Assembly (NCBI GenBank): GCA_964486045.1
Contig: CAZALK010000009.1
Span: 96,001-160,000 of the forward strand
Direction of reading: 5' to 3'
DNA from: an uncultured archaeon
GTDB taxonomy: Archaea; Asgardarchaeota; Lokiarchaeia; Sigyniarchaeales; SOKP01
DNA: 64,000 bases
The notes beneath the pieces were generated by a model that was given only the letters and a program-made list of their open reading frames with translations, was not told where the DNA came from and searched no databases. Shown one piece after another: positions 6,946 to 59,256 of this stretch (positions are counted from its first letter, which is position 1; the number at the start of each line of letters is the position of its first letter). The position numbers and the translations under genes are program-made.

Positions 6946-7227
6946 ATTTACTACCGTGGTTATATCTTAGTTCGATTAAAAATCATCGGAACTCAATGGA
7001 AAGTCACAGAAAAACTAAAGGGTTTAAAATCGAGTAGTCAACAGGAAGATTGGGAAGTAACCTATGCTACACCGATATATGGTGGATGGGATTTAATCGC
7101 CGAATGTAAATTTACCAAACTTGAAGATTTAGATAATATAGTGTCCTATTGTAGGACAGATAAGGAATTATCTCAATGGATAGATGCAACAACTACTTTT
7201 ATCAGCACCAAAAAGAATTATCCATAA
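6946..7227 (+). CDS. stand-alone Lrp/AsnC ligand-binding (RAM-like) domain protein, probable ATT start
   Basis: Not in ORF track. 93-codon frame IYYRGYILVRLKIIGTQWKVTEKLKGL...TPIYGGWDLIAECKFTKLEDLDNIV...TTTFIS. In-frame TAG at 6943-6945 directly before ATT; AGGTG 8 nt upstream. Confidence 0.7.
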   Translation: MYYRGYILVRLKIIGTQWKVTEKLKGLKSSSQQEDWEVTYATPIYGGWDLIAECKFTKLEDLDNIVSYCRTDKELSQWIDATTTFISTKKNYP

Positions 7228-7398
7228 TATCGAAAAAAGAAGGTAGTATGATATATATCCTCAATTCAGACTCAGTTCGAAAAATCTCATCAAAGTAACA
7301 GTATGTTTATGCAACTAAAACTCTATTAAATATTTATTATTTCAATAGTAAACAAATAAGATCTTTATTTTTTATACACTTTAGGATAAGAATTTTCT

Positions 7399-9246
7399 AT
7401 GCGAGAATTAAAACTTGAGGAAATACAAACTCGTGTTGAGTATTCACCAGGAAAGGATCCTTTCGAAAAATCTCGTCAAAAAGGAACTAGGAGCTGGATT
7501 TTGAAACATATGTTTCACGGTTCTAATAAAATATTATTGATTATTGTTTTTTTTACAACAATCATAAGCGCTAACATTAATTCGATATCTTACATCGTTT
7601 TGGGGAATGCCCTTGTAGCCCTTCTTTCCCCATTGGGGAACTACACAACGCTAATATCTTATGTAATTTTGATATTAATATTAAACCTTAGTACGCCTAT
7701 CCTGAGAGTAGTCAGTTTTATGTTAAGGGAAATTGTAGCCAGTAGAATGGAGAGAGATGCCAGAAGAGAATTCTATACTAATCTTTTAGGTAAAAGCCAA
7801 TCATTTCATGAGCAACAACAAATCGGGGATTTAATGGCTAGAGTCACAAACGATGTTCGTATGTTAAATTTTTTAGTGAGTCCCGCAATTTCTTATATTT
7901 TTGAATCATTCACGACATTATTTATCCCAATTATTTATATTATTCTTTACTATCCGAGTCAATTAATATTTGCGCCCTTATTATTTGCGATTCTCTTTTT
8001 ATTTTCATTGAAGTCCTATGTTCGTAATTTGGGACCAATTACTCTAAGATTACGGAGTTTCTTTGGGATGATGAATGCCACATTGGCCGAAACACTTAAT
8101 GGAATTGAAGTTGTAAAAGCTTCCGTTCAAGAGCATTTTGAATTAAATAAGTATTTTTCAAAAGCAAGGAGTTATCGCGATGCTTATATAGATCAGGGAA
8201 AAGTTCAAGCGAAATATTTTCCCCTCTTACTTATTGCTTTAACAATAACAATTGGATTAACTCATGGTATTATATTAACGTTTATCCCATTAGTATTTTT
8301 TAGTATTGGACAATTAATTGGATATCTTGGATTAATATCACAATTACGTTTTCCGACAATGGTTTCAATGCGTGTTTTTGCCATTATTCGGGCAGCAATT
8401 TCGAGCTCACATAGGCTACTAGAATTAATGAATAGAGAAACTGAAATTGATGAAAATCTAGGAGGAACAAAGAAAATAATAGATGGAAAGATTACATTTG
8501 AAAATGTTTCATTTACTTATCCAGGAAGTGAAAAAACCGTATTAAAAAATATTTCTTTTGAAGTACAGCCAGGACAAACAATAGCAATTGTTGGGACAAC
8601 GGGTTCAGGAAAAACCACCCTCACAAAATTGATGTCTCGTTTATACGATGTGAATCAGGGCAGAATTCTTATCGATAATATTCCCATCAGAGATTACGCT
8701 TTGCATTCTTTAAGACGTCAAATTTCATATATTGAACAAGATATCTTCTTGTTTTCTGATTCTCTATTTAATAATATATCCTTTGGAAGAACCTCATCAT
8801 TAGAAGAAATTATATTTTGCGCGAAAGAAGCTCAAGCAGATGGTTTTATTCTCCAATTACCAGACCAATATGATTCAGAGGTCGGAGAAAGAGGAGTTCA
8901 GCTTAGTGGGGGAGAAAGACAACGAATTGCAATTGCTCGGGCTTTCCTCTCGGACCCAAGAATCTTGATTTTAGATGATTCAACCTCAGCAATCGATTCA
9001 AACACAGAAGATAAAATCCAAAAAGCATTTCAAAATATATTAAGAAGACGAACCACCCTTTTAATCACTCATAGACTTTCTCAGATTAGGTGGGCAGATT
9101 TGATTATAGTGTTAAAAAGCGGTGAAATAGCCAATATGGGAACTCACGAAGATTTATTAAGAACATCAGAAGAATACCGTAAAATCTTTATTAAGAAGTT
9201 TGATGTAGATATTGAACAACTTCTTAAACAAAAGGAGGTATTATAA
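7399..9246 (+). CDS. heterodimeric ABC exporter subunit (TMD+NBD, degenerate Walker B)
   Basis: GTTGSGKT, LSGGERQR, ILILDD. Confidence 0.95.
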   Translation: MRELKLEEIQTRVEYSPGKDPFEKSRQKGTRSWILKHMFHGSNKILLIIVFFTTIISANINSISYIVLGNALVALLSPLGNYTTLISYVILILILNLSTPILRVVSFMLREIVASRMERDARREFYTNLLGKSQSFHEQQQIGDLMARVTNDVRMLNFLVSPAISYIFESFTTLFIPIIYIILYYPSQLIFAPLLFAILFLFSLKSYVRNLGPITLRLRSFFGMMNATLAETLNGIEVVKASVQEHFELNKYFSKARSYRDAYIDQGKVQAKYFPLLLIALTITIGLTHGIILTFIPLVFFSIGQLIGYLGLISQLRFPTMVSMRVFAIIRAAISSSHRLLELMNRETEIDENLGGTKKIIDGKITFENVSFTYPGSEKTVLKNISFEVQPGQTIAIVGTTGSGKTTLTKLMSRLYDVNQGRILIDNIPIRDYALHSLRRQISYIEQDIFLFSDSLFNNISFGRTSSLEEIIFCAKEAQADGFILQLPDQYDSEVGERGVQLSGGERQRIAIARAFLSDPRILILDDSTSAIDSNTEDKIQKAFQNILRRRTTLLITHRLSQIRWADLIIVLKSGEIANMGTHEDLLRTSEEYRKIFIKKFDVDIEQLLKQKEVL

Positions 9247-11049
9247 ATGTGGTTTGGTTTGGAAGCCGAAGAATACGATAGAGATTATGGGGATTTAGTC
9301 CTTTTAAAACGTATAGTAAGCTACTTTGGCAAATATAAACGTCCAATGATAATTGTCATAATTTTTTTAACAATCTCCTCGACATTCAGAGCATTGATCC
9401 CTGTACTCACTACTATTGCAATAAATAATATTGGTAACACCCAAGGTATCTTTTTTATTTTTTTAATAATATTATTTATTTTTGGTTTGAACTTATCAGG
9501 ATGGGTTTTTAACTATTTTCGTCAACTCAATATGTCTCGAGTCGTTGGGGACGTAATGCTAGATTTAAGAAGGGATGCCGGAGAAGCTGTGTTAGAGCAC
9601 GACCTCTCGTTTTTCGATAAACACCCTATTGGAAAAATTGTTAGTCGAATAAATACAGATTCCCGAGATTTATCTCAAACGGTAGAATTGACCCTTGACG
9701 TGATCTCATCCCTCTTTATGATTATTTTCATTCTTATATTTATGAGTTTCATGAATCTAACACTCCTTCTAATAACAATGATCTCAGTTCCTCTCTTCTT
9801 TGCGTTAGCATTATCTTTTCGCAAAGTTGCAAGATCAAGAACTTTATTAGGACAAAGAGCTTTAGCTTCTGTTAACGCCTACGTGAAGGAAAGCTTTTCG
9901 GGAATTCAAATTGCAAAAACTTTTCGCCAAGAAGATAAGCTGTATGAAAATTTTAATGAAGTAAACAATATATCTTATAAGGTTAATCTCCGTAGAAGTT
10001 ATGTATTTAATATTATGTTTCCTGTTTTAAGTTTAATTCAAGGAACAGTTTTAACTTTAATCGTATTCTATGGAGGGGGAAGAGTTTTAGATGGAAGTAT
10101 TAGCGCTGGTGATTTGAATCTATTTCTCCAAGGATTAAGTTATCTATTTATGCCATTACTGACCATTGCTACCTTTTGGCCAGCATTTCAAACTGGTTTG
10201 GCATCATCTGAAAGGATTTTTGCCTTAATTGATACTCTACCCCTCGTTGTACAAAATGATAATATTAAACCACCTCGTCTTAAAGGTGGGATCGAATTCA
10301 AAAATGTAACCTTTAGCTATGAAGTTTCCAAGGAAGTCTTTGAGAATTTTAACCTAAAAATTAATCCTGGAGAATCTGTGGCAATAGTTGGACATACTGG
10401 TGCTGGAAAATCTAGCTTAGCAAAATTACTCGCGAGGTTTTATGAATTTCAGGAGGGAAAAATCTTAATCGATGGTGTAGATATCAGAGATTATGATTTA
10501 AAAGAATATCGGAAACAGATTGGCATAATCCCGCAAACTCCCTTTCTTTGGGCAGATACGATTGAAAACAATATAAAGTATTGTAACAAAACGGCTACAA
10601 AAGAGGATGTATATAACGTTTTAAATATTTCTAGTGGCGCCGATTGGATTGATGATACATCAAATGGACTTGAAACTAATGTTGGGGAAAGAGGAAGGCG
10701 TCTTTCTATGGGACAGCGCCAATTAGTTGTTTTTGCTCGTGTACTGTTAGAAAATCCCGCAATTCTTATTCTTGATGAAGCAACAGCTTCTGTAGATCCC
10801 TTCACTGAAACTAGAATTCAAGAGGCTCTACAAAAAACAATTGAAGGGCGTACTTCAATCATTATAGCTCATAGGCTATGGACAGTACGTCACGTTCAGA
10901 AAATAATTGTTCTCGATCATGGAAAAATTGTAGAAGTAGGCAACCATGACGAATTAATGGCTAAAGGTGGGATTTACTCTGAACTTTACAATACTTATTT
11001 CAGACATCAATCTTTAGAATACATAGAAAGACTTAAGGAATTGGCATGA
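9247..11049 (+). CDS. heterodimeric ABC exporter subunit (TMD+NBD)
   Basis: GHTGAGKS, LSMGQRQ, ILILDEAT; abuts partner gene. Confidence 0.95.
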   Translation: MWFGLEAEEYDRDYGDLVLLKRIVSYFGKYKRPMIIVIIFLTISSTFRALIPVLTTIAINNIGNTQGIFFIFLIILFIFGLNLSGWVFNYFRQLNMSRVVGDVMLDLRRDAGEAVLEHDLSFFDKHPIGKIVSRINTDSRDLSQTVELTLDVISSLFMIIFILIFMSFMNLTLLLITMISVPLFFALALSFRKVARSRTLLGQRALASVNAYVKESFSGIQIAKTFRQEDKLYENFNEVNNISYKVNLRRSYVFNIMFPVLSLIQGTVLTLIVFYGGGRVLDGSISAGDLNLFLQGLSYLFMPLLTIATFWPAFQTGLASSERIFALIDTLPLVVQNDNIKPPRLKGGIEFKNVTFSYEVSKEVFENFNLKINPGESVAIVGHTGAGKSSLAKLLARFYEFQEGKILIDGVDIRDYDLKEYRKQIGIIPQTPFLWADTIENNIKYCNKTATKEDVYNVLNISSGADWIDDTSNGLETNVGERGRRLSMGQRQLVVFARVLLENPAILILDEATASVDPFTETRIQEALQKTIEGRTSIIIAHRLWTVRHVQKIIVLDHGKIVEVGNHDELMAKGGIYSELYNTYFRHQSLEYIERLKELA

Positions 11050-11071
11050 GCGCCTTTTCCATTTAACCCCT

Positions 11072-11521
11072 ATGCCAGATGAAGAAAAAATCCTTGAAAA
11101 TTATGTAGAACCAGATATAACAGTTGAATACATCTTCATAGAAAAAGCGGATACCCAGATTAAACCGATTAATGATGATCAAGGATATCAGATGGGCTTT
11201 TTTAGTCTTTTTGTCTCTGGTGAGTTAAAAAATAACAATTTAAGTGATTTCAAGAAATTATTGTTGGATGAATTGAATTATAGCGTTAAAACCTATGACT
11301 ATTTTAAATCCAATAAAATATCTCTGGGAGATTACAAATTTGCCCTTGTAGATAATAATAAAATTGTTTCTGAATTTACTGTGTTGGATGAGAATTTTTT
11401 TCAAGCATTATTAGCATCACAAAGAAATCTAATGATTGTAGGTGAGAATTTTATTATAGAGAATTTTCTGCGTGATTCTCTATTTTACGAATGGTTTGAA
11501 GAATACACGAATAGATATTAA
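11072..11521 (+). CDS. hypothetical protein
   Basis: 149-aa acidic ORF. Confidence 0.65.
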   Translation: MPDEEKILENYVEPDITVEYIFIEKADTQIKPINDDQGYQMGFFSLFVSGELKNNNLSDFKKLLLDELNYSVKTYDYFKSNKISLGDYKFALVDNNKIVSEFTVLDENFFQALLASQRNLMIVGENFIIENFLRDSLFYEWFEEYTNRY

Positions 11522-11540
11522 TAAGATAATTTATTTTTTT

Positions 11541-13190
11541 TTAGAACTTAATTCTTTTTAATACTGGATATCTCCTACCAATTCCGAAGGCGCTTTCACT
11601 AACCTTAATTGTTTGAACTAATTGTCTCCGTTTGTATTCGGAATTTAGATAAAGATTTCTAACTCTATTAATTGTATTCACATCAAAACCTTGGTCCTTT
11701 AAATTCTGAAATTCAGAACCAATTCCATTTTCAATAATTTCTTCCAATATCACATCTAACACATCATATGGTGGAAGGGAATCACTATCTTTCTGATTTT
11801 CACGTAATTCAGCAGTGGGAGGTCTTTCTATTATTCCTTTAGGGATTATCTCTTTATCTCGATTTATCCAATCACATATATCATAAATTTGAACTTTTAA
11901 AAGATCCCCAGGAACATTCTTACCACCACAAGTATCACCATATAAAGTACAGTAACCCACTCCAATCTCAGATTTATTCCCGGTAGACACCAAAAGCCAA
12001 TTGAATTTGTTAGAGTAATACATTAATATATCTGCTCTAATTCTTGCTTGAAGGTTCTCATCTGCTATATCAAAACGTTGTTTTCCCATGTTTTTTTCTA
12101 TATTTTCTTCATAGATAGCAAATAAATCGCTAATAGGATGAATAACATATTTAAGATTTAAATTATCGCATAATTTTCGGGCAAGATCTATACTTTCTTT
12201 TGATGTGAATCTTGTAGGCATCATTATAGCAGTAACTCTTTTTGAACCGAGAGCTTTTGCACAGATATAGGCAGTAATAGCAGAATCAACTCCACCACTT
12301 AGGCCTAATACCACACCGACGAAGACACCACTTTTGTGATAATAATCAAAAAGGTTTAATTTCAAAGCATTTACGACATCTTCTCTCCAATCTGCTTTAG
12401 GATGCGATTCTTCAGTCGTTTGAGCTTCATTGACTAGTAACTCGAAAAAACGAATATCCTCTTCAAATGCTTTCGCTTTAAAAACAATCTGACCATATCT
12501 ATTTGTAATAAAACTTTGACCATCATAAACTATTTCGTCAAGCCCACCAACCATATTAACATATGCTATAGGTAGTGATAGTTCTTTGGATTTTCCTCTA
12601 ATTAGATCACTTCTTAATTTAAATTTGTTAATATGATAAGGTGAGGCATTAATAACAATCAAAATCTCAGCTCCATTTGCTTTTAAGTTCCTTGATACTT
12701 TCACATTATAATGTTCATCCCATATATCCTCACAAATTAATATTCCTACTTTGTATCCTTTAATTTCTACTGGTTCATATTGATTGTCAAATGAAAAATA
12801 TCTTCTCTCATCAAATACATCATAGTTTGGAAGTAATCGTTTATTTACGCTTTTAATAATTTTATTATTTTCAATAACAATAGCAGAATTATAGAACCGA
12901 TGTATTTTTCCTTCTATTTTTTTTGGTTCTGTAAATGTGCCCAAAATAATTGTTGATTCTGTCTCAATTTCCTTAATTTTTTTAATAGCTTCAAGATTTT
13001 TCTTTCTGATTAGGGGATCATGAATATGATCCATAATTGGATAACCCACAAGCGCCATTTCAGGAAATATGATGATCTCACTTTCTTGACTGTTTCTAAT
13101 TATCCCTATTATTTTATTAGCATTATACTCAATATCTCCTACAATTGGATTAATTTGAGCAATTTTGAGCTTTAAGCTTCCATTTAGCAT
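11541..13190 (-). CDS. nadE: glutamine-dependent NAD+ synthetase
   Basis: nitrilase domain (FPEMAL, LPNYDVFDERRYF, ICEDIW) plus GLSGGVDS, ENLQARIR, PPTAEL. Confidence 0.96.
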   Translation of the reverse strand: MLNGSLKLKIAQINPIVGDIEYNANKIIGIIRNSQESEIIIFPEMALVGYPIMDHIHDPLIRKKNLEAIKKIKEIETESTIILGTFTEPKKIEGKIHRFYNSAIVIENNKIIKSVNKRLLPNYDVFDERRYFSFDNQYEPVEIKGYKVGILICEDIWDEHYNVKVSRNLKANGAEILIVINASPYHINKFKLRSDLIRGKSKELSLPIAYVNMVGGLDEIVYDGQSFITNRYGQIVFKAKAFEEDIRFFELLVNEAQTTEESHPKADWREDVVNALKLNLFDYYHKSGVFVGVVLGLSGGVDSAITAYICAKALGSKRVTAIMMPTRFTSKESIDLARKLCDNLNLKYVIHPISDLFAIYEENIEKNMGKQRFDIADENLQARIRADILMYYSNKFNWLLVSTGNKSEIGVGYCTLYGDTCGGKNVPGDLLKVQIYDICDWINRDKEIIPKGIIERPPTAELRENQKDSDSLPPYDVLDVILEEIIENGIGSEFQNLKDQGFDVNTINRVRNLYLNSEYKRRQLVQTIKVSESAFGIGRRYPVLKRIKF

Positions 13191-13276
13191 TTTGAGTTCT
13201 ATATTAAATTAAATTTGATATTAATATTCTTTTCCTCTAAGAATTATAAAAAAAACCAAAAAAAATCTTAATTGTA

Positions 13277-14626
13277 TTATAATCTTATGTAGCGATTTCT
13301 TTCCCAGTCGCTTACAACAAGTCGATATGCATCAAATTCTTCTAATTTAGCATAATAATAATTCTTAAACGCAACTTCGCCAAATGTATCTTTCATTAAT
13401 TCAGATTTTTTGAATTCCGTGATTGCTTCACTTAGGCTTCCAGGTAAAGAAATAATCCCTTCTTTTTCCATTTCTTTTGATGATAAATGGTAAACATTTC
13501 TGTCTGTTGCCTCAGGAATTTCAATATCATCCGAGAGAAGTCCTTCTAACCCCGTTCTAATTAATACAGCAAATTGTAGATATGGATTGCCCGAAGGATC
13601 TGGACATCTTATCTCATTTCTAGCTGAATCAGGTTTTCCATGAAAGTCTGGTACTCTAATTAGGGGAGATCGATTTCTAAATCCCCAAGCTAGATAGACT
13701 GGAGCTTCATATCCCGGAACTAAACGCTTGTAAGAGTTAGGCCAACTACTTAATACAGCACACATAGCCCTAGCATGTTTTAATTGACCGGCCATCCATT
13801 TTTTCATTAATATAGAAATATTGTCTGCATCATTTTCATCATAGAAGATATTATTACCGCCTCTCCAAAGGGATTGGTGTACATGCATCCCAGATCCATT
13901 GATTCCATGAAAAGGCTTTGGCATAAATGTAGCAGTCATCTTATTTTGAGCTGCAACAGTTTTTACAATTGTTTTTATAGTAATTGTATTGTCTGCTGTA
14001 TCAACAGCTTTATCATATCGAAAGTCTATTTCATGCTGTCCATACGCTACCTCGTGGTGGACGCATTCGACATCAATTCCCATGGCATCGCAATATTCAG
14101 CAATAGTATATCTCATCAATTCGTTTATATCATATGGATCATAGTCGAAATATCCTCTCATATCTGAAGGTTTAAATTCTTGCGTAGTATCAGGAGTTAG
14201 TATAAAAAATTCCATTTCTGGAGCACATTGAAAAGTATAACCATGTTCTTCTGCTTTTCTTACAGCTCGTTGCAAAATATATCTTGGATCTCCTTCATAA
14301 CGTTTTCCATCTGGTGTATAAATGTCACAAATCACTCTTGCAACTTTTCTTTCTTTTCTCCATGGTAAAAGAAAAAATGTACTCGGGTCAGGTATAGCAA
14401 CTTTATCGGATTCCTCTATGGCTCCATAACCTGTAATGGAACTTCCGTCAAAGCTTTCGCCAATATCAAATATGTCTTCAATCCGTTTTGAGTTTATTTC
14501 AAAACTTTTGATTATCCCATGGATATCTGTAAATTGGAGATAGATAAATTTAATATCTTGTTCTTTTATCTTTTCAATTACAGCATCACATACCTGCTTC
14601 CTTTTTGGATCATCTTTTTCAATCAT
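13277..14626 (-). CDS. glnA: glutamine synthetase type I
   Basis: FDGSSITG, HHEVAYGQHEI, TFMPKP, NGSGMHVHQS, NSYKRLVPGYEAP. Confidence 0.97.
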   Translation of the reverse strand: MIEKDDPKRKQVCDAVIEKIKEQDIKFIYLQFTDIHGIIKSFEINSKRIEDIFDIGESFDGSSITGYGAIEESDKVAIPDPSTFFLLPWRKERKVARVICDIYTPDGKRYEGDPRYILQRAVRKAEEHGYTFQCAPEMEFFILTPDTTQEFKPSDMRGYFDYDPYDINELMRYTIAEYCDAMGIDVECVHHEVAYGQHEIDFRYDKAVDTADNTITIKTIVKTVAAQNKMTATFMPKPFHGINGSGMHVHQSLWRGGNNIFYDENDADNISILMKKWMAGQLKHARAMCAVLSSWPNSYKRLVPGYEAPVYLAWGFRNRSPLIRVPDFHGKPDSARNEIRCPDPSGNPYLQFAVLIRTGLEGLLSDDIEIPEATDRNVYHLSSKEMEKEGIISLPGSLSEAITEFKKSELMKDTFGEVAFKNYYYAKLEEFDAYRLVVSDWERNRYIRL

Positions 14627-14659
14627 AATTTTTAATCATTCTGTTTGTTTTTATCTATT

Positions 14660-15034
14660 TTATTCATAAAATAAAGAAGAATTGCTCTTATTTTTTATAT
14701 TAGGAGTGAAAAATTTTTTTGATGGAAAGACTATTGGGATGCTCTCCTTTTTTGGTTTAAATCTTCTAACAGCTTCACTATTCCAATCATAGAGATTTCT
14801 TTCATTTATTGCTAAGCTTTCTGGTTCAGGAGTTAAATCTTTAATTGATTCACTAGTTCTGCTTTTTCTAAATGCAGTAGTATCAATTCCTAAGAAGACT
14901 GAACAATTCCATTTGTGATTGGTTTTATCTCCAATATCTGCCACACCACTATAAACCGAATAATCCTCACAATCTTGACAGATTTTTCTGTCATAGTGGT
15001 ATTTTTTTCCGCATACGGGACATTTTATTTCCAT
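14660..15034 (-). CDS. Zn-ribbon protein, paralog of 23832..24332
   Basis: CPVC-x10-CQDC, HKWNC motif, C-terminal LFYE. Confidence 0.75.
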   Translation of the reverse strand: MEIKCPVCGKKYHYDRKICQDCEDYSVYSGVADIGDKTNHKWNCSVFLGIDTTAFRKSRTSESIKDLTPEPESLAINERNLYDWNSEAVRRFKPKKESIPIVFPSKKFFTPNIKNKSNSSLFYE

Positions 15035-23516: not shown

Positions 23517-23591
23517 TATAAAAAAATGAGATAATTAAGCGTAAGAGGAAAAGTAAGGCTATAAAAAATTTTTAAATAGGAGGTTTTAAAA

Positions 23592-23807
23592 ATAACAGTT
23601 CAAGAGTATTTTCGAACATGGGAAGAAATTTGCTTAGAAAAACTAAAAGAAATAGGAAGATCATCAGCCTCAGAATGGGCAAGGGCAATGGGATATGGAG
23701 AAAATCGTAATGGAGTAACAACCGTCATTAAAAGAATTAGAAAAACGATGCCAGAGAAATTGGTAATTTATTATAAACAAAGGCCTAGATTATACGAGGC
23801 TCAATAA
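23592..23807 (+). CDS. small winged-helix-like protein, probable ATA start
   Basis: Not in ORF track. 71 codons ITVQEYFRTWEEICLEKLKEIGRSSASEWARAMGY...TVIKRI...RPRLYEAQ. AGGAGG 8 nt upstream; in-frame TAG at 23577. Confidence 0.7.
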   Translation: MTVQEYFRTWEEICLEKLKEIGRSSASEWARAMGYGENRNGVTTVIKRIRKTMPEKLVIYYKQRPRLYEAQ

Positions 23808-23831: not shown

Positions 23832-24332
23832 ATATCATTAAAATGTCATCTTTGCGGAAAAGAGATTTATCATGACAGCAAGATATGTCAAATATGTGAA
23901 GAAACAGCTACCAAAAGTGCATTATCCCACAGTGGAAGAGAAGTCAAGAAGTGGAGATGTGATAACTTTTTAGAATTAAAAAGTTTACCATTTGGATGTA
24001 ATCTAGGTTCAGGAATCGAAATTGGCCCGAAAATGATTAATTGCCCTGAGTGCGGAGAGGAATACTCATATGGAAGAAAAATTAGCCATATTTGCCAGGA
24101 CAATTCAATTGAGTTTGGTAAAATATTCGAATTTGAACACCAAGGCCATAAGTGGAATTGTGATACGGCAATGGCATGCATGGAATTATTAACATCCAAT
24201 CTAGATTCAGTTGAATCATTTGTAGAAAAAATCCCGCGTATTGAAAAACTCGAGACAAACGATCATAAATGGAATGATTTAAAATTGAACATTGAGATAG
24301 ATGTGAAGAAGAACCATCTAATTTATGAATAA
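23832..24332 (+). CDS. double Zn-ribbon protein, probable ATA start (track ORF 24033 is the 3' part)
   Basis: Frame is open 67 codons upstream of ATG 24033. ISLKCHLCGKEIYHDSKICQICEE aligns to MEIKCPVCGKKYHYDRKICQDCED of the paralog. In-frame TGA at 23823; ends LIYE. Confidence 0.8.
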   Translation: MSLKCHLCGKEIYHDSKICQICEETATKSALSHSGREVKKWRCDNFLELKSLPFGCNLGSGIEIGPKMINCPECGEEYSYGRKISHICQDNSIEFGKIFEFEHQGHKWNCDTAMACMELLTSNLDSVESFVEKIPRIEKLETNDHKWNDLKLNIEIDVKKNHLIYE

Positions 24333-24523: not shown

Positions 24524-25891
24524 TTGATAAAATTAAAGAGGTTTAAAAAAATTCAGCAAGAGATTGTATTATTCCCGGGATGTGTAATTACTTATCGGCT
24601 CCCTTTTATTGAAGTTTCAATAAGAAAGGCTTTCGATTATTTAGGGATCGCATTCACAGAAAATTCAAAGTTTTCCTGTTGTCCTGAACCTAATGGAATC
24701 AAAAACTCGAATAAGTTATTATTTTCCATAGCTGCTGCACGGAATCTTGCTCTTGCTGAGAAGGAGAATAAATCTATTTTAACACCCTGTAATGGGTGTT
24801 TTACAACTTTCAAAAAAATAAAAGGTGAAATTGAGGAGGATCACCACTTCAGGAGGAAAGTTAATGATTATTTAGATAAAATTGATCTTAAAGTTCAGGG
24901 AGATTTAGAAGTTTATCATATGGTCGAATTCTTTTCTAAATTCAGAAGAGAAGCAATTAAGGATAATTTAAATTATACCTTGACTGGTTTAAGAGTTGCT
25001 GTGTTTTATGGTTGTCACTTCCTCAGACCAAGTAATATGGTGCAGATAGATGACCCGCTAGAGCCAACCATATTTGATAATTTAATTGAGGATTTAGGTG
25101 CTCAAAGTATTGATTATGATCTCAAGATGGAGTGTTGTGGGGGAAGCCTTGGGAGAGCAGGGAATCCAGCCCTATCATTAGAGATAATAAATGCGAAATT
25201 AGCCAGCATGAAGGAGAATAAAGTTGATTGCATAGTCGTGTGCTGTCCTCAATGTTTTATTCAGTTTGATCATTTACAACATGACTTAAAAAAAGATGAT
25301 CATAATTACGATATTCCCGTTTTATATTATTCAGAAATTGTTTGTATCGCATTAGGGATTGACATTCGAGAAATTATGAAAAAAAACCACAGAACACAAG
25401 TTGAATCCCTTTTTAACAAATTAGAAATCATCCAAGAGAAAAATAGTGAGATAAGAAAACATTTCGATCTTAATTTCTTACTCAAGTGTTATTCATGTAA
25501 AGCATGTGATGATGACTGTATTATTTCAACTAAGACTGAATTCAAACCGAGTGAAATTGTTGGTAGACTTCTTGAGGGAAAAGTTGAGGATGTAATATCA
25601 GATCCTTCAATTTGGTTGTGCCTTGATTGCTATTTATGTTATGAGCTGTGTCCTATGAGGGTTGGGGTGATTGAAATTTTTTCAATATTACGAAACCTTG
25701 CGACAGAACGAGGTCATACTACCAAGGGATATAAGGGTGAATTTGAATCCTTTTATCAAAAAGGAACTGTGGGTATGTTTTCAAAGTCAGCCCGTAAAAG
25801 AGTGGGCTTAGAATCTACAAAACCAAACGTTGGAGATTTGAAAGAATTATTTAATATTATTGAAAGAGAAAATGTAAAACCAGATTCTTAA
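24524..25891 (+). CDS. HdrB-HdrC-like fusion (two CCG domains + 2x[4Fe-4S])
   Basis: FPGC, SCCP, TPCNGC, FYGCH, ECCGG, CCPQC; CYSCKACDDDC, CLDCYLCYELCP. Confidence 0.9.
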   Translation: MIKLKRFKKIQQEIVLFPGCVITYRLPFIEVSIRKAFDYLGIAFTENSKFSCCPEPNGIKNSNKLLFSIAAARNLALAEKENKSILTPCNGCFTTFKKIKGEIEEDHHFRRKVNDYLDKIDLKVQGDLEVYHMVEFFSKFRREAIKDNLNYTLTGLRVAVFYGCHFLRPSNMVQIDDPLEPTIFDNLIEDLGAQSIDYDLKMECCGGSLGRAGNPALSLEIINAKLASMKENKVDCIVVCCPQCFIQFDHLQHDLKKDDHNYDIPVLYYSEIVCIALGIDIREIMKKNHRTQVESLFNKLEIIQEKNSEIRKHFDLNFLLKCYSCKACDDDCIISTKTEFKPSEIVGRLLEGKVEDVISDPSIWLCLDCYLCYELCPMRVGVIEIFSILRNLATERGHTTKGYKGEFESFYQKGTVGMFSKSARKRVGLESTKPNVGDLKELFNIIERENVKPDS

Positions 25892-45308: not shown

Positions 45309-45326
45309 AAATAAAATAACTGATGT

Positions 45327-50818: not shown

Positions 50819-51475
50819 ATGGTAAGACACCGTTTACCTAGATTTCCATTTGATTATATTAATGACAAGGCTGATGAATATAATAATTCAAGATGGATGG
50901 AGCGTAATCAAAAGAGAGCTACTATGTTAAGCATCCAATATCTTTTTGATGAAAAATTAGATAATAGTGAAGTGGATGGGATACAAATGGAAGATTCATC
51001 ACTAATTTTAGAGTTAGGGTGTGGGACGGGTTTTTCTTCCGAGGTCTTAATTGAAAATGGTTTTATTGTAATAGGCGTAGATATTTTACCTGATATGTTA
51101 TTAAAAGCAAGAGAAAAGAAGAAAGATATGAAATTTGAAAAATCATTATTATTAATTTTAGCTGATATTAATTATCTACCGATTAGAGCAAATGTTATTG
51201 ATCATATCATTTCGATCTCCTCCTATAACTTTATTATCCATGGAAATAAGAATTTTGGTGAAAAAATTAAGCTTCTCAATAATACAGCAAAATATTTAGG
51301 CAAAATTTTGAAGAAGGAGGGGAGAACAATCATTGAATTTTATCCTATAGATGATCAAGAATTAACTATTTTTAATAATTCATTTACTAAAAATGGGTTT
51401 GAAGGATTCATGGTGAAAAGCAACCCAAAACAAAAATCTGGTCAAACCTTTTTGCTATTAAAGAAAAGAGTATAA
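50819..51475 (+). CDS. SAM methyltransferase, Bud23/WBSCR22-like
   Basis: LELGCGTG plus ISIS, EFYP.DDQ, GFEG..V..NP segments recalled from Bud23. Confidence 0.7.
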   Translation: MVRHRLPRFPFDYINDKADEYNNSRWMERNQKRATMLSIQYLFDEKLDNSEVDGIQMEDSSLILELGCGTGFSSEVLIENGFIVIGVDILPDMLLKAREKKKDMKFEKSLLLILADINYLPIRANVIDHIISISSYNFIIHGNKNFGEKIKLLNNTAKYLGKILKKEGRTIIEFYPIDDQELTIFNNSFTKNGFEGFMVKSNPKQKSGQTFLLLKKRV

Positions 51476-51477
51476 AA

Positions 51478-52620: not shown

Positions 52621-52733
52621 TATAATACATATACCCTTTAAAAACTCAGATTTCAAGAACTAAAATAATAAAATTTAATTTGAACTACTCTTTTTAGATA
52701 ATAATATGATTAAAAGATTTGGTGAGTAAAAAA

Positions 52734-53070
52734 ATACAAAAAGCTAGAATAAGGCTTTCTTCTACTCAATTAGACGCACTTAAGTCGGTATGCGGACAAA
52801 TTGAGTCTGTGTGCAAAACACTTTCAAACCTCTTGTTAGTGGTGCGACTCACAGGGTATTAGAAAGAACGGACCTATTCCTCTTCCCACAAAAAGATTAC
52901 GTGTGCCAATATTAAAAGCGCCCTCTGGACAAGGAACTGCTACCTGGGCAAAATTTGAGATGCGTATTCATAAACGTCTTTTTGAAATAATTGCTAATGA
53001 AAGAAGCATGCATCTCATTATGAAGATTCAAATTCCCGAGTCAGTGCTTGTAGAAATTGAACTAATGTAA
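52734..53070 (+). CDS. rps10: ribosomal protein uS10, split gene: join(52734..52817,52849..53070)
   Basis: Exon 1 (I/M)QKARIRLSSTQLDALKSVCGQIESVCK; exon 2 SQGIRKNGPIPLPTKRLRVPILKAPSGQGTATWAKFEMRIHKRL...IQIPESVLVEIELM. Spliced product 101 aa. Start ATA 52734 (GTG 52722 alternative). Confidence 0.93.
52818..52848 (+). other. predicted 31-nt bulge-helix-bulge intron in rps10 mRNA
   Basis: outer helix CUGUG/CACAG, central helix UGCA/UGCG, 3-nt bulges AAA (52816-18) and ACU (52847-49); removal restores frame and length. Confidence 0.85.
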
Positions 53071-53074
53071 ATGT

Positions 53075-53833
53075 TTATAAATCATCTATTTTAATCTGAA
53101 CCGGATCTTTCGGTAATTTTGCTTTCTCATTAATTTCGATATTATCGACATAGTAAATAGTGCCAAGAACTTCCGTATTTTTACCAATTGTTACATCTCT
53201 GCCTTTAATATCACCTTCAACATGCGCCCTCCCAATGTTTACAATGTTTTTAGCGAAAACACTCCCGTGGATTATATAATGTTGCTTTTTTCTTATAGTT
53301 TCTGAAGCTCCAATTAGGATATCTTCAGCAACGACATTTCCTTCTATATGTGTTTTCCCTTCTATTCTAATCTTTTTTTCAGAAGATAAGTTTCCGTTAA
53401 CATTTGAAGAACCAGAAAAGGTTACACCTTGTTCTCCTCTCACAAAATGTCCTGCTTTGAAAGAACCAGATGCAATTAAAGAACCTTGGATATTAACAAG
53501 ATTACCTATTTGCGTTGAACCAGAAAAATCCGCATTTTCATCTCCATAAAGAAATCCAGCAATATTAAAAGAACCCGAGCTACTTACATCTCCATGCGCG
53601 TTTATATTACCTGATCCTTTTAAAGATCCTGATGAAGTAAGCCCATTACATTCCAAATCCCCATTAATTCGACCTGAACCTGAAACTCGTATGGATTTAT
53701 TTATTTTTCCACCCGAGATTTTTGCTGAGCCAGATACGCTTATATGTTCTTCATATTCTTTTAGGCTCCCTGAGCTACTGATTATTGCTCTTTTCTCATT
53801 TTGCTTTACAGATTCACCCTCTTTTTTTTCCAT
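53075..53833 (-). CDS. bactofilin-like (polymer-forming) beta-helix protein
   Basis: repeated (V/F)SGS.xIxG units; IEGNVVAEDI, VEGDIKGRDV. Confidence 0.75.
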   Translation of the reverse strand: MEKKEGESVKQNEKRAIISSSGSLKEYEEHISVSGSAKISGGKINKSIRVSGSGRINGDLECNGLTSSGSLKGSGNINAHGDVSSSGSFNIAGFLYGDENADFSGSTQIGNLVNIQGSLIASGSFKAGHFVRGEQGVTFSGSSNVNGNLSSEKKIRIEGKTHIEGNVVAEDILIGASETIRKKQHYIIHGSVFAKNIVNIGRAHVEGDIKGRDVTIGKNTEVLGTIYYVDNIEINEKAKLPKDPVQIKIDDL

Positions 53834-54018
53834 TTTTAATCACAACTAATAGAATTGATATACAGTAATATAAAATCAAGTTTAATAAAACATTTACTTA
53901 TTTCTTTATTCTAGAAGAAAACTTGAGTTTAATTAATCAGATTTAAATCAATATATAATTATAATTCTATTAGTTAATTAGAAGCTTACTTAACAAAATA
54001 AAACGAGAATGTATTGTA

Positions 54019-54744
54019 ATGGGAGATTTTCACACAAAAACGTTTTATGGGCAAAAATCAAGTTTATTAATTTCTAGCCCAGCAAAAATTACTCCTTACG
54101 TTTTCCTTAGTTGTATTAATAGGAAGGATGATGGGGCTTGGGAGAGGCCAGTTAAGGGGGAAGGGAAAACTGTTAAACTATCAATTGAAGAAATAATATG
54201 TATTTTAGAAGTTCTATATAGAAGAAGTGCAAATTGGAGAGGATTTCATGTATTTAAAGATCGCAAAACAGAGATTTATGCCGGATGGGAAGATAAAAGT
54301 CGTCAAGTATTGCTGATAAAGATCGGGAATTATATGAAGAAACTCAGATTTCCTAATTTGAATTTTTTAACGTTACTGCTTGAGCATCTATTATCTGAGA
54401 AAATAGAGTTTGCTACGAGTGGGACATTCGAATCTGAGAGGAAGGAAAAACAAGAAGTTGATGAGGAATCTGAATACGGGGTTTTTGCAGAATATATTAC
54501 GGCTAGAGATGGTTTACATATTGTAGAAACTACTGAATATGATACTTCTATAGATACCTTCGATATAAATGCTAAAATAAAAGTTGATAGTCCTAAGGCT
54601 TTAATGATTACGTTAGAATCTGGTGAGGAGTATTGGATACCTAAATCAACAGTACATTCAGTATATGATGTAAATAATAAAGAGATGTTTCAGAGGTTTG
54701 TAGTAGATAAATGGATAATTGAAAAATATAAGATTTCAAAATAA
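54019..54744 (+). CDS. hypothetical protein
   Basis: 241-aa ORF; C-terminal KAL...WIPKS motif. Confidence 0.7.
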   Translation: MGDFHTKTFYGQKSSLLISSPAKITPYVFLSCINRKDDGAWERPVKGEGKTVKLSIEEIICILEVLYRRSANWRGFHVFKDRKTEIYAGWEDKSRQVLLIKIGNYMKKLRFPNLNFLTLLLEHLLSEKIEFATSGTFESERKEKQEVDEESEYGVFAEYITARDGLHIVETTEYDTSIDTFDINAKIKVDSPKALMITLESGEEYWIPKSTVHSVYDVNNKEMFQRFVVDKWIIEKYKISK

Positions 54745-54825
54745 AGGATCTAGTAAAAACCATAATTTCAAGAAACGAAAAAAGATAATAACTAATTTTT
54801 ACTTCTTTATCTAATAATTCTCTGT

Positions 54826-55665
54826 TTGATTCAAATGGGATTCACTATTAATTTTTTGAAACAAATCACTTTAAATGTATTTGATGTAGTTTCTCCCCTT
54901 TTGGGGACAAAAGAAGCTGCTATAAAATCTAAAAGAGGTGCTGGGGGAGATATATCAATGAATATTGATATTGTTGCTGAAAATGCTATAATTGAAACGT
55001 TAGAGGAAGCCAGTATTGATTTATTATTAATTAGTGAAGAAGTGGGGGAAAAATTTATAGGTGATAAAGAAAAAGCAAAGGAGAATCAATTAACTTTAAT
55101 CGTGGATCCATTAGATGGGTCAAATAATGCGGTTAGAGGTGTACCCTACTGTTCTGTATCAATAGCATCAGCGATTGGTACAAAAATAAGTGATATCAGA
55201 AAAGCTACTGTCCTTAATTTGAACACTAAAGATATTTATTGGGCAGAGAAAGGAAAGGGTGCTTTTCTTAATGATAAAAAAATCCAAGTCTCTAATTTAG
55301 ATATTTCTCAAAAATGCTTTTTTGAACTCAACCTCCCTAAGGAAAATTTTATGAAAGTTTTTCAAGATCTAATGCCAATAATAAGAAAATTTTATCGAAT
55401 GAGAATATTGGGAAGCAGTGCACTAACTTTATGTCAAGTAGCAGGTGGTAATATGGAAGCCTTTATTAACATGAGGAATAGTAATAGGTTAGTTGATGTA
55501 GCAGCAGGATTGTTGATTTTAAAGGAAGCCGGAGGAAAATTTTTTTCGTTAAACGGGACTGAGATTGATTTTCCATTATCAATAGATGTTAGATTTCCAT
55601 TTGTAGCTTGTAATGCAAACTTAGAACCTTTCCTTAAAACAGAAATCCAAAATAAAATAAACTGA
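54826..55665 (+). CDS. inositol monophosphatase / FBPase (archaeal type)
   Basis: GAGGD, SEE, DPLDGSNN, RILGSSAL, DVAAG. Confidence 0.93.
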   Translation: MIQMGFTINFLKQITLNVFDVVSPLLGTKEAAIKSKRGAGGDISMNIDIVAENAIIETLEEASIDLLLISEEVGEKFIGDKEKAKENQLTLIVDPLDGSNNAVRGVPYCSVSIASAIGTKISDIRKATVLNLNTKDIYWAEKGKGAFLNDKKIQVSNLDISQKCFFELNLPKENFMKVFQDLMPIIRKFYRMRILGSSALTLCQVAGGNMEAFINMRNSNRLVDVAAGLLILKEAGGKFFSLNGTEIDFPLSIDVRFPFVACNANLEPFLKTEIQNKIN

Positions 55666-55682
55666 AATGTAAGCCGAATATA

Positions 55683-56843
55683 ATGAATTCAAGAGAAAGG
55701 GTACGGATTACATTAAACCATAAGGAACCCGATAGTGTTCCATTGGATTTAGGTGGAAACCAATCAGGAATTCATATAAAAGCATATAAAAGACTTATTG
55801 ATTATCTTGGAATCGAAGATAAAGAAATTAAAACCTACGATTATATACAGCAACTTGCAACTCCATCTGAGATATTATTAGAACGTTTTAACATCGATAC
55901 GAGGTATATTCGACCTCTTGGTGGCATGGTTAAAATTGATGATTTCGAAGTAGAATATGAAGGAAATTATGTTGGTGTTTATGATCAATTTGGATGTTTT
56001 TGGGGAAATAATGCTAATAAAGATTTAAAGAACATCTTGTATTACGATCCTGTTTTTCATCCCTTTGAGGATTTTAAGACAGTTCAAGATATTAAGGGAT
56101 TTGATTGGCCTGATGGAACCGATAAATCCCCATTTGAAGGATTAAAAGAATATGCTAAAGGATTACACGACCGAACTAATTTTGCATTAGGATCTGCGCC
56201 AACAGGGTGCATTTACGAGTACACAACTTTTCTTTTTGGTTTCACTAGAGCTTTAAGATATCTAAAGAAAAAACCAGAATTAATAACTGCTGCAATGGAA
56301 GGACTTTTACAATATTGGGTTGATTACAACATCACATTTTTGAATGAAGTTGGTCAATACTTAGATTTTCTGTGTATCAATGGAGATCTCGCAGAACAAG
56401 CTGGCCCTATAATGGACTTGAGGACATATAAAGATTTGATAAAGCCCATTGAGAGGAAACTTTCTGAAAAAGTTCATTCTTTAGCAAACCTAAAGATAAA
56501 TTATCATTGTTGTGGTTCAATCCCACAATTTATCCCCCATTTTGCAGAAATTAAATATAACGCAGTTAATCCCGTTCAAATTTCGGCATATGATATGGAG
56601 CCTTGTAGCCTAAAAAAACGTTTTGGGAAAAAAATTGCTTTTTGGGGTGGTATGTGTAACTCACAAGCTACGCTACCTTTTGGTAATCCTAAACAAATAA
56701 GAAAAGAAGTTAAAAGAAATTTTTGGTGCTTGAAACCTGGTGGTGGTTTTGTAGCAGCAAATATTCATAATATCACAGCAGAAGTTCCCCCTCAAAATAT
56801 AGTAGCTATGTTTGACGCTGCAAATGAATTTAGAAATTACTAA
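55683..56843 (+). CDS. uroporphyrinogen decarboxylase / MtaA-like family protein
   Basis: MNSRERV..HKEPD, YHCCGS, NPVQ, PGGGFV..HNI. Confidence 0.88.
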   Translation: MNSRERVRITLNHKEPDSVPLDLGGNQSGIHIKAYKRLIDYLGIEDKEIKTYDYIQQLATPSEILLERFNIDTRYIRPLGGMVKIDDFEVEYEGNYVGVYDQFGCFWGNNANKDLKNILYYDPVFHPFEDFKTVQDIKGFDWPDGTDKSPFEGLKEYAKGLHDRTNFALGSAPTGCIYEYTTFLFGFTRALRYLKKKPELITAAMEGLLQYWVDYNITFLNEVGQYLDFLCINGDLAEQAGPIMDLRTYKDLIKPIERKLSEKVHSLANLKINYHCCGSIPQFIPHFAEIKYNAVNPVQISAYDMEPCSLKKRFGKKIAFWGGMCNSQATLPFGNPKQIRKEVKRNFWCLKPGGGFVAANIHNITAEVPPQNIVAMFDAANEFRNY

Positions 56844-56846
56844 AAT

Positions 56847-57923
56847 TTAAGCAGGTACGTTGATTGGATAATTACCATATTTTCTCCGAATGTTTTGCAT
56901 CGATTCAAATCGATCTACTGTAACTGCGGGATTAATACTATGCCCCGAACCAAAAATATAGCCCCCATTTGGTCCTAACTCGCGAATTAGCCTTTTTGCA
57001 TTAGCTTCGATTTCAGAAATCTTTCCCATTGCTAATAATACAGGGCTTAAATTACCAGAAAATGTTATTTGATCACCATATTTTTGATGTAACTTAAAAA
57101 TATCATATTCTGGATTTGCGGTCATCGGTTCAATTGGATTTATTATATCGACCCCACATTTTATAATATCTTCAAAAATATCTAATAGATCGCCATCAGA
57201 GTGTAACATTATCTTACAATTTCTTTTATGGGCAACCTCACAAATTTGTTTTAACCACGAAAAGACGTATTTTCTGTAATTTTGAGGGCTCATAAATAAC
57301 CCATTCTTAAACCCATAGTCATCCCATAATAGAATTATCTGAGCATCATTATCCGCTAAAATTTTAACAAGTTCTACAGTGAATTTTCCCCTATCGTCAA
57401 AAACTTTCTTTGCTTGTTTTGGTTTTTTCATTATTCTTGAGAAAGTCTCAATTCCAAATCCCTCCCAAGTACATTCCATCATTGCTCCTGTAGCTGGAAT
57501 AGAAAAAACTTCATTATTTAATTCTTCCTGAGTTTTTCTACCTAACTTAAATTGTTCAATTCTTGTATTTAAATAAGGATCTGGTTGTTCCCAACTCTCA
57601 TATTCTTCAAAGGATTGAAATTCTCCTCCATGATATCCTGATAATGTTGTTCCATCTTTGTATGATTCAAACTTCATTATTCTTCCATATTCATCTACAT
57701 ATCCTCCTTTGAAAAATTTCCGTGGGAAGAGACTTACATAACTTAAAACTAAGTCTATACCGACTCTCCTAAAAAAATCATAAATTATTTTGTAACCACG
57801 ACCAACACTCTCCATACGATAATATTTCAAAATTGTATCGTTTGTAAAAGCGCTTTCAAACGCAGGAATTCTATCTGGTTCTTCATGATTTATGACTTTT
57901 AATATTCTTTCTGGTGCTCTCAT
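56847..57923 (-). CDS. uroporphyrinogen decarboxylase / MtaA-like family protein
   Basis: HEEPDRIP, DDYG, LHSDG, NPIEP, GGYIFGSGHSI. Confidence 0.88.
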   Translation of the reverse strand: MRAPERILKVINHEEPDRIPAFESAFTNDTILKYYRMESVGRGYKIIYDFFRRVGIDLVLSYVSLFPRKFFKGGYVDEYGRIMKFESYKDGTTLSGYHGGEFQSFEEYESWEQPDPYLNTRIEQFKLGRKTQEELNNEVFSIPATGAMMECTWEGFGIETFSRIMKKPKQAKKVFDDRGKFTVELVKILADNDAQIILLWDDYGFKNGLFMSPQNYRKYVFSWLKQICEVAHKRNCKIMLHSDGDLLDIFEDIIKCGVDIINPIEPMTANPEYDIFKLHQKYGDQITFSGNLSPVLLAMGKISEIEANAKRLIRELGPNGGYIFGSGHSINPAVTVDRFESMQNIRRKYGNYPINVPA

Positions 57924-58017
57924 TATCCCCTAATTCTTAAGAAGTAATTAGAATTAATATAATTAATAACATAGTTCTTGCTAAATAAATTATTCTTTAA
58001 AGAAGGGATATTGATAA

Positions 58018-58614
58018 TTGACAAATTTTAAACGGTTGAATCGGGAGTTTTTCAGTAGAAATACCATAACAGTGGCAAAGGAGTTATTAGGGAAGTATTT
58101 AATAAGAGAAACAGATAAAGGTACCATGGTAGGAGAAATTATAGAAGTTGAAGCATATCTCGGAACTGAGGATAAAGCTTGTCATTCTTATAATTATAAA
58201 AAAACCGAAAGAATAAAGATTATGTATGAAAAACCCGGAACTTTTTATGTTTATTTAATATATGGTATGTATCATTGTTTAAACGTTATCACTGAACCTG
58301 AAGCAATACCTTGCGCGGTGTTAATCAGACAATTATACCCAATTGATGGGATTGAACTAATAGTCGAAAATCGGAAGATTAGGAAGAGTAAAAAACCTAA
58401 AAATTTAACCAATGGTCCAGGAAAATTATGTATGGCTTTTAATATTACTAAAGATGAATTCAATGGAAATGATTCGGTTGCAAATGACTCAAAATTATTT
58501 TTTGCCCATACTGAGAAACAATTTGATAAAACTTTTATCTCTCTTAAAAGAATCGGGGTTGAATATGCCGAGGAAGATAAAGACAAGCTACTCCGGTTTA
58601 AATTAACTAAATAA
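58018..58614 (+). CDS. mpg: DNA-3-methyladenine glycosylase (AAG/MPG family)
   Basis: EVEAYLG, YVYLIYGMYHCLNV, AVLIR, NGPGKLC, RIG. Confidence 0.94.
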   Translation: MTNFKRLNREFFSRNTITVAKELLGKYLIRETDKGTMVGEIIEVEAYLGTEDKACHSYNYKKTERIKIMYEKPGTFYVYLIYGMYHCLNVITEPEAIPCAVLIRQLYPIDGIELIVENRKIRKSKKPKNLTNGPGKLCMAFNITKDEFNGNDSVANDSKLFFAHTEKQFDKTFISLKRIGVEYAEEDKDKLLRFKLTK

Positions 58615-58803
58615 CACGGATATATATCAAAAAAATAGTGTCTTTTATTTGAATTCAATGAGGAGTTTTCTATTTTTTTCTATTACAAATTTGACATTAA
58701 TGGATACATTTAAATATTAGAATTCTTCAAATATACATTGTAGAAAGGGATATTGGTTGTAGGTTTATTATACATTTATTATAAAATTTAGTAAGGTGAT
58801 TCT

Positions 58804-59256
58804 ATCGTAAAAGATGCCTTGAAGTTTTTTCAAGCATATATTAAAGAAATGATTGATATTGGTGGAAATAATTTACCAAAAGCAATTTCTACTAAATCTG
58901 GTGCAAAATTAGGTAAAATATATAAAGGAAAAAGTTTAGTTTCAGATATTGAAAGTGCTCTGAAACAAATTTATATTGCTTTGAAAGCAAAACCAATTGT
59001 AAAAAAGCTAAACGATAATCACTATGAAGTAATAGTTAAATACTCTAAAGGATTCTGCTTAATAGGAGGATCTAATAATTCCTCGCGATCGCATGTTTTT
59101 CAAGAAAATATATGTATCCCTTATACAAAGGGATTCTTAAATGAACTTTTCCCACAATACAAGTTTGAAGAGGATATCATTAACTGTATCCCGTTAAATG
59201 GACAAAAAACATGCCATTATAAGCTAAAAGTTTCAAACAGACGAAACTTCGTATAA
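58804..59256 (+). CDS. V4R-like domain protein, probable ATC start
   Basis: paralog of 59390; shared KDAL lies upstream of the track TTG; conserved C..G, ICIPY, C..CHY. Confidence 0.7.
   Translation: MVKDALKFFQAYIKEMIDIGGNNLPKAISTKSGAKLGKIYKGKSLVSDIESALKQIYIALKAKPIVKKLNDNHYEVIVKYSKGFCLIGGSNNSSRSHVFQENICIPYTKGFLNELFPQYKFEEDIINCIPLNGQKTCHYKLKVSNRRNFV

Follow-up and report, generated by a model that had tools for sequence, protein, structure and literature searches.

In Escherichia coli the infC gene, which encodes the initiation factor IF3, is translated from an AUU codon led by a Shine-Dalgarno (SD) motif and is under translational autocontrol, and pcnB likewise begins at AUU. Translation Table 11 lists ATT, ATC, ATA and CTG among the possible starts, and in many mitochondria AUA is also read as methionine in elongation by a tRNA carrying f5C34. 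Archaea are considered to start only at AUG, GUG and UUG, and eukaryotes to be highly strict in their choice of start codon. A review of archaeal initiation gives AUG, GUG and UUG only (PMC7531240), and a Ribo-seq study of Haloferax set aside the ~30% of its putative alternative initiation sites that were near-cognate (PMC7261190). Two fidelity factors, IF3 and eIF1, are autoregulated via their own weak start sites, and aIF1 from S. solfataricus rejects AUU on SD-led mRNA in vitro (PMC4705826). Our literature search found no paper on AUH (AUA, AUU or AUC; ATH in DNA), CUG or ACG starts in Asgard archaea. Here we describe seven genes with apparent ATH starts in a stretch of 64,000 nucleotides (the window, C9:96001-160000) from a 5.18-Mb archaeal metagenome-assembled genome of 45 contigs and 31% GC, which belongs to Promethearchaeota (Loki-type Asgard archaea; Lokiarchaeia). 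Judged from their sequences, these and similar genes elsewhere in the genome are very probably intact, expressed and translated from near-cognate codons, mostly AUA, AUU and AUC with a genome-wide minority of CUG and ACG. The basis of this reading is the lack of a canonical start (ATG, GTG or TTG), the geometry of the SD motifs, the match with canonical starts in homologues, conservation, and signs of purifying selection.

The 3' tail of the 16S rRNA reads ...GGAUCACCUCCU, and the full SD complement is therefore AGGAGGTGAT. A GGTGA signal precedes confident ATG starts with its A at -7; an exact SD 5-mer is found at only ~10-14% of ATG starts and a 4-mer at ~35%. Every flagged site of the window carries an SD of 4-7 nucleotides at a spacing of 4-8 nt, an arrangement that would not fit leaderless initiation, which we rejected as an explanation. 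None of the seven sites appears to have a usable canonical start, and all of them align with ATG, GTG or TTG, or with a conserved ATH codon, in orthologues or paralogues. The preliminary description of this DNA had listed five frames opening at isoleucine codons behind an SD-like motif 4-8 nt upstream: ATT 6946 (site 1), ATA 23592 (site 2), ATA 23832 (site 3), ATA 52734 (site 4) and ATC 58804 (site 5). All five positions proved accurate, as did the in-frame stop within five codons upstream claimed for four of them (sites 1, 2, 3 and 5).

At site 1, ATT 6946 directly follows a TAG codon, and the first canonical start in frame is codon 65 of 93. Two paralogues in the same genome open with ATG TAT TAT CGA GGT TAT, whose columns match the ATT TAC TAC CGT GGT TAT of site 1 exactly. 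The start column is ATT or ATC, never ATG, in nine orthologues from other species, all with a conserved SD and a stop or sense codon immediately 5'. Site 2 has an in-frame TAG four codons upstream and its next canonical start at codon 36 of 75; its codon is ATA in two relatives (G004 and G018) and ATG in two others (G009 and G003). The ATA of site 3 follows an in-frame TGA by two codons, with the next canonical start at codon 69 of 168. It pairs with the methionine of a paralogue at 15034 on the minus strand, as had been proposed, and with ATG in G004 and G018. For site 5 the preliminary description had preferred ATC 58804 to the called TTG 58819, and the relatives bear this out: the codon is ATC in G009, G003 and G006 and GTG in G018, and the TTG of this genome corresponds to TTA or CTT/CTA.

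The ratio of nonsynonymous to synonymous substitution rates (dN/dS) is 0.04-0.10 for site 1, 0.06-0.34 for site 2, 0.18-0.30 for site 3 and 0.11-0.12 for site 5. These genes are therefore under purifying selection, and the decay into pseudogenes that would have undone the preliminary description is contradicted by the data. With dS near or above 1 at all four sites, the odd start codons appear to have lasted through long divergence. It is extremely improbable that the frames are pseudogenes or that their ATH codons are sequencing or assembly errors: although the genome was assembled from a metagenome into 45 contigs with an estimated contamination of 7.8%, the same ATH codons recur in independent assemblies from 9 to 49 species at each site, the dN/dS values lie far under 1, and the affected genes include the essential uS10, aIF1, eL21 and eL34, of which uS10 and aIF1 each gave a single match in this genome.

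Site 4 is the gene of ribosomal protein uS10, for which ATA 52734 had been suggested as the start of the canonical MQKARI terminus, with GTG 52722 as a possible alternative. Across 12 aligned species the GGTGA motif and the opening ATA CAA AAA GC are invariant, separated by a spacer of 8 nt here and 6-7 nt in the relatives; GTG 52722, which lies inside the SD, is in frame in this genome only. The start column in 80 Promethearchaeota genomes holds ATA in 49, ATT in 1, ATG in 20, TTG in 6 and GTG in 4. Among the 50 genes with ATA or ATT, an upstream canonical start in frame exists in one. A stop is found one codon upstream in 27, and in 21 no canonical start follows until codon 13-66 of ~101. 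GGTG precedes 49 of these 50 starts and 1 of the 20 ATG starts, a contrast whose p value overstates the association because the genomes are related. Many public uS10 entries have 94 residues, begun at a TTG of codon 8, whereas the true length is 101; NCBI-annotated entries of 101 residues that start with MQKARI indicate that NCBI already puts some starts on ATA.

One could suppose instead that the N-terminal stretches are untranslated and that each protein begins at the next downstream ATG, GTG or TTG, as gene callers assume. The 94-residue uS10 entries and the presence of TTG 58819 and TTG 24524 in this genome would agree with such starts. Against this stand the distances to the next canonical codon at sites 1 to 3, in 21 of the 50 uS10 genes and in the gene of initiation factor aIF1, where it is codon 57 of 108, past the zinc knuckle. 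The parts that would be skipped are conserved as protein and match paralogues and solved aIF1 at the N-terminus, and the downstream TTGs are not conserved. We consider downstream starts a highly improbable explanation.

The open reading frame (ORF) from ATA 52734 ends after 43 codons owing to an insert of 31 nt at 52818-52848, which falls between uS10 codons 28 and 29 and is absent from 11 orthologues of the same genus. The predicted fold of 52805-52865 consists of an outer helix of 6 bp, a bulge ACU, a central helix of 4 bp, a bulge AAA and an inner helix. Two 3-nt bulges thus lie on opposite strands of a 4-bp helix, as in a canonical bulge-helix-bulge (BHB) element, and the predicted cuts would restore the frame by excising exactly the 31 nt without a counterpart in the 11 relatives.

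Two similar inserts were seen outside the window. The gene of an EF-2-like GTPase (G000:C13:92018-92047, plus strand) carries 30 nt with three stop codons inside the AHIDHGKT P-loop motif; its boundaries fit a relaxed BHB, in which the cuts fall 2 nt outside a central helix of 4 bp on either strand, and G006 has no such insert. In another genus of the family, uS10 (G056:C135:24551-24883, minus strand) is 30 nt longer, with three in-frame stops, and may contain an independent mini-intron.

The preliminary description had named ATT 24551 and ATT 364 as weaker cases, and both gained from the relatives. ATT 24551 is kept behind AAGAGGT and 8 nt of spacer in six orthologues; in three of the six an in-frame stop separates the upstream frame from the ATT, which excludes an upstream start there. 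For the minus-strand gene at 364/361, the orthologue in G018 reads TAA, then GGTGAG, then ATT. TTG 454 may be its start instead. In G018 the orthologue of window gene 2-454 (minus strand) is split by a single stop, with both parts in frame (G018:C88, minus-strand offsets 69852-70107 and 70110-70572). The coordinates of all features are given in Table 1.

Table 1. Positions in the window of the genes with probable near-cognate starts, their SD motifs and the predicted uS10 intron.
Feature	Coordinates	Strand	Basis or remark
Gene running off the window start	2..364	-	Start plausibly ATT 364 or ATT 361
Site 1 SD, AGGTGTT	6933..6939	+	6 nt 5' of ATT 6946; kept in orthologues
Site 1 gene, 93 codons, start ATT 6946	6946..7227	+	No Pfam family; paralogues begin MYYRGYIL
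Site 2 SD, AGGAGGT	23578..23584	+	7 nt 5' of ATA 23592
Site 2 gene, 71 codons, start ATA 23592	23592..23807	+	Orthologue start column, dN/dS
Site 3 zinc-ribbon-like gene, 166 codons, start ATA 23832	23832..24332	+	GTGA 6 nt 5'
SD before ATT 24551, AAGAGGT	24536..24542	+	Orthologue comparison
CCG/4Fe-4S (HdrB/GlcF-like) gene	24551..25891	+	Pfam; start most likely ATT 24551, not TTG 24524
Site 4 (uS10) SD, GGTGA	52721..52725	+	Conserved in aligned relatives
uS10 exon 1, 28 codons, start ATA 52734	52734..52817	+	Orthologue alignment
Predicted bulge-helix-bulge intron in uS10, 31 nt	52818..52848	+	Minimum-free-energy fold and orthologue gap
uS10 exon 2, 73 codons and stop	52849..53070	+	Joined product of 101 aa equals orthologue length
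Site 5 SD, GGTGA	58795..58799	+	Sequence read and orthologue alignment
Site 5 gene, 150 codons, start ATC 58804	58804..59256	+	Paralogue of gene 59390-59842

The frequency of such starts was estimated genome-wide against 1.2 Mb (36%) of G006 (CP070831.1), a complete genome of the same genus, using non-overlapping stop-to-stop ORFs in both genomes. Reciprocal best matching yielded 796 pairs (median identity 67%), and starts were compared only where the alignment sets in close to the upstream stop of both ORFs. Canonical starts were present in both genomes in 591 pairs and lacking from one genome in 57, and in 41 pairs neither genome had one within 5 codons of the alignment start. Opposite the canonical start of the partner, the 57 pairs display ATT (9), ATA (6), ATC (3), CTG (5) and ACG (2). 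ATH codons are thus over-represented (18/57 against a background of 11%, binomial p=2.6e-5), and so are CTG (5/57 against 0.46%, p=7e-6) and ACG (2/57 against 0.39%, p=0.02). About 22 of the 25 near-cognate columns looked clean by eye, with shared downstream residues, an SD and an in-frame stop upstream. TTA (6) and GTA (3) at start columns were set aside, since most pair with internal leucine or valine codons. Among the 41 pairs lacking a canonical start in both genomes, ~10 show a conserved ATH in both behind an SD; the remainder are mostly conserved 5' untranslated regions, many with an ATG 6-8 codons downstream, and were rejected.

Accordingly, an estimated 2.5-3% of the genes in each genome, some 120-150 in the present one, would have near-cognate starts, and the window, with 7 of ~59 ORFs, lies above this rate. 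In this genome the set includes eL21 (ATA here, ATC in G006) and eL34 (ATT in either genome), as well as the POR alpha subunit and a polyprenyl synthase (CTG), an RsmB/F methyltransferase, and DUF255, PhoU-like, THUMP, Fer4 and ACT (ACG) proteins. An SD 4-mer precedes 17 of 24 near-cognate starts (71%) and 35% of ATG starts (Fisher p=7.6e-4). Near the 5' ends of ORFs without a nearby canonical start, an SD was seen for 5.4% of ATH and 3.3% of other codons (p=1.5e-6). SD-anchored tests of the whole genome were of low power when run with exact 5-mers or a position weight matrix; in a sharper form they showed an excess of ATH that was modest yet significant. Hence the comparison of orthologue starts that had been recommended as a check turned out in favour of recurrent initiation at AUA, AUU and AUC beyond chance, and the shortened public uS10 entries show that such starts truncate genes as the preliminary description had claimed. 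Its further inference of relaxed discrimination at the third position of the start codon fared less evenly: AUH starts do recur, but CUG (5) and ACG (1-2) stand far above background in the start columns, so the habit is not restricted to the third position and looks like general near-cognate initiation. Relaxed discrimination as such is an interpretation beyond proof by sequence.

Three other candidates from the comparison were rejected. ORF 59929-60249, a frame without a start codon but with conserved 'protein' similarity, corresponds to signal recognition particle (SRP) RNA on the other strand. A partial match to the archaeal SRP RNA model (RF01857; E=1e-9) lies at 59907-60055 on the minus strand, inside a conserved GC-rich block (~59843-60260). 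Its 47.6 bits fall short of the gathering score, and it spans model positions 109-263 only. The gene, which may carry insertions, mimics a startless conserved ORF on the plus strand. The upstream extension of a radical-SAM gene (51403-51477) is an overlap with the preceding gene. The 'ATC start' of uL11 is a frame break: the uL11 ORF (G000:C5:238668-239084, plus strand) and its G006 counterpart lack the first ~24 positions of the L11 N-terminal domain; in each genome the missing part (VGPTGINVN...) is encoded immediately 5' in a different frame. Either the frame break is conserved, or the gene has an intron whose length is not divisible by three.

Several points weigh against the reading of these codons as regular starts. 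Chance alone would produce about 4 of the 25 near-cognate columns, and the orthologue tally comes from one partner genome and ungapped extension of BLAST alignments. Related genomes are non-independent samples, and the SD-anchored enrichment is only modest because few genes here carry a clear SD. Close canonical alternatives exist in this genome at three sites (GTG 52722, TTG 58819 and TTG 24524) and are possibly also used, although at sites 4, 5 and 24551 they are not conserved in relatives. The ATA of site 3 is confined to this genome and could be a recent weakening mutation.

This last case would suit an explanation by ordinary start fidelity, in which AT-biased mutation, at 31% GC, turns ATG into ATA or ATT with no lineage-specific relaxation, and weak starts persist only under a strong SD or where low expression is tolerated or useful. 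Ordinary fidelity also agrees with the canonical initiator tRNA, with an SD twice as likely at near-cognate as at ATG starts, and with the excess of ATH, derived from ATG by G-to-A, G-to-T or G-to-C changes, over CTG and ACG. The dependence of near-cognate starts on strong SDs fits compensated weak starts as well as it fits relaxed fidelity. Ordinary fidelity accounts poorly, however, for an ATA fixed in 49 species in the highly expressed uS10, for the ATH starts of eL21 and eL34, and for the strong enrichment of CTG and ACG, both of them higher in GC than the background. Nor is drift the obvious source of the aIF1 start, which keeps ATT, ATC or ATA over several families and looks tuned. We regard ordinary fidelity as a rather unlikely, though still credible, account of the whole set.

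The aIF1 gene (C1:612451-612774, minus strand) is the single SUI1 match in the genome search, and its identity follows from Pfam SUI1 and from alignment to the solved aIF1 4MO0 from the zinc knuckle onwards. It starts with ATT behind AAGGTTGTGA and an in-frame stop. The start column is ATT in 26 and ATC in 3 of 29 relatives, which, together with this genome, gives ATT or ATC in 30 of 30 genomes of the family with a readable aIF1 start. Beyond the family, aIF1 begins with ATA or ATT in part of family f2 and in f5 and f7, and with TTG in f6 and part of f2. The habit that the preliminary description had ascribed to the lineage thus extends over the genus and the family and, in the case of aIF1, to several families of the class. 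The gene of this factor bears a start of the very type that the factor rejects.

The preliminary description had also pointed to aIF1 and the initiator tRNA as places to look for a cause; the aIF1 gene has the ATT start, and the initiator tRNA is canonical. The initiator tRNA gene (C1:583602-583725, plus strand) was located via its acceptor stem; it has the anticodon CAU, A1:U72 and three G:C pairs, and contains a 48-nt intron at canonical position 37/38, having been missed by ARAGORN and the Rfam tRNA model. ARAGORN found 31 tRNAs at default settings and Rfam 29; relaxed ARAGORN gave noise only, and an anticodon-arm motif search of this genome for tRNAs returned no match. No second initiator tRNA was seen in this genome, in a lineage where tRNA detection is poor. 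At 2665 internal ATA codons the aligned residue is isoleucine in 71% and methionine in 2.3%, and the code is therefore standard, without a change of AUA to methionine.

A special decoding device might be proposed in place of mismatch tolerance: a modified C34 (f5C-like), a second initiator tRNA, conversion of AUH to AUG by RNA editing, or an AUG-bearing 5' exon joined by splicing. Most tRNA genes of the lineage are interrupted and hard to find, so that a second initiator could hide, and mini-introns are predicted to be spliced from mRNAs in this genome. We nevertheless consider such a device improbable, given that the single initiator-like tRNA found is canonical, that CTG and ACG starts lie beyond any third-position device, and that ATH at the methionine column of paralogues, with the SD at its normal distance, leaves no room for an extra exon; tRNA modification and RNA editing are invisible in DNA.

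As a separate observation on decoding, two minus-strand ORFs of G000:C7 (C7|-|25255|25528 and C7|-|23223|23673) contain an in-frame TGA shared with G006, with protein conserved on both sides. These are probably selenocysteine codons; ARAGORN reports a tRNA-Sec at C15:137829-137921.

If near-cognate codons are indeed used as starts, the 30S subunit would be placed by strong pairing of GGUGA or AGGAGGU with the 16S tail (...GAUCACCUCCU), ~4-8 nt 5' of the start. The ordinary initiator Met-tRNA (CAU) would tolerate a one-base mismatch in the P site, and the protein would begin with methionine. Such a habit would be old and clade-wide in Promethearchaeota (Lokiarchaeia), extending to highly expressed ribosomal proteins. 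For aIF1 itself we infer a feedback, in which less aIF1 would allow more near-cognate initiation and thereby more aIF1; this is reasonable because the S. solfataricus factor rejects AUU and because IF3 and eIF1 regulate themselves via weak starts. A broader proposal is an aIF1-governed regime throughout Lokiarchaeia, with low stringency, in which AUA, AUU, AUC, CUG and ACG behind an SD are regular starts for ~3% of genes and aIF1 itself starts at AUU or AUA. We put this forward tentatively, as possible but somewhat short of an even chance. Fidelity-factor autoregulation would then be known in three independent cases, with aIF1 joining IF3 and eIF1.

Compared with the described systems, the genes studied here resemble infC and pcnB in having a near-cognate codon behind an SD, and they show the same configuration: no canonical start before the conserved N-terminus, a normal SD, and a position in the column of canonical starts. 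As in infC, a weak start sits on the gene of a fidelity factor, but the factor is aIF1, with the SUI1 fold, and is unrelated to IF3. The putative habit also differs in scale, comprising ~3% of genes including ribosomal proteins instead of a handful and extending over a whole archaeal family or class. The parallel with eukaryotic eIF1 concerns a homologous factor whose synthesis would depend on a start site that the factor disfavours, with the same set of near-cognate codons. In eukaryotes, however, sites are selected by scanning and Kozak context and eIF1 retains AUG in poor context; in the present genes it is an SD that determines the site, and the aIF1 codon itself is AUU, AUC or AUA. With other archaea this lineage shares aIF1, aIF1A, aIF2, Met-tRNAi and SD-led mRNAs; the difference is that near-cognate codons appear as the main conserved starts of annotated-type genes and not as minor alternatives. 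Third-position variants of AUG serve as starts in mitochondria too, but internal ATA is isoleucine here, and CUG and ACG are also used.

Gene finders limited to ATG, GTG and TTG would lose or shorten a few percent of Asgard genes: only 28 codons of the site 1 gene would be left, and 7 residues are missing from many public uS10 entries. Such truncation skews catalogues of eukaryote-like proteins, sets of orthologues and predicted structures. A lineage beside the root of eukaryotes would routinely use the near-cognate set known from eukaryotes, and its homologue of eIF1 bears such a codon. The evolution of start-site stringency and of its feedback control thereby becomes testable in cultured Asgard strains.

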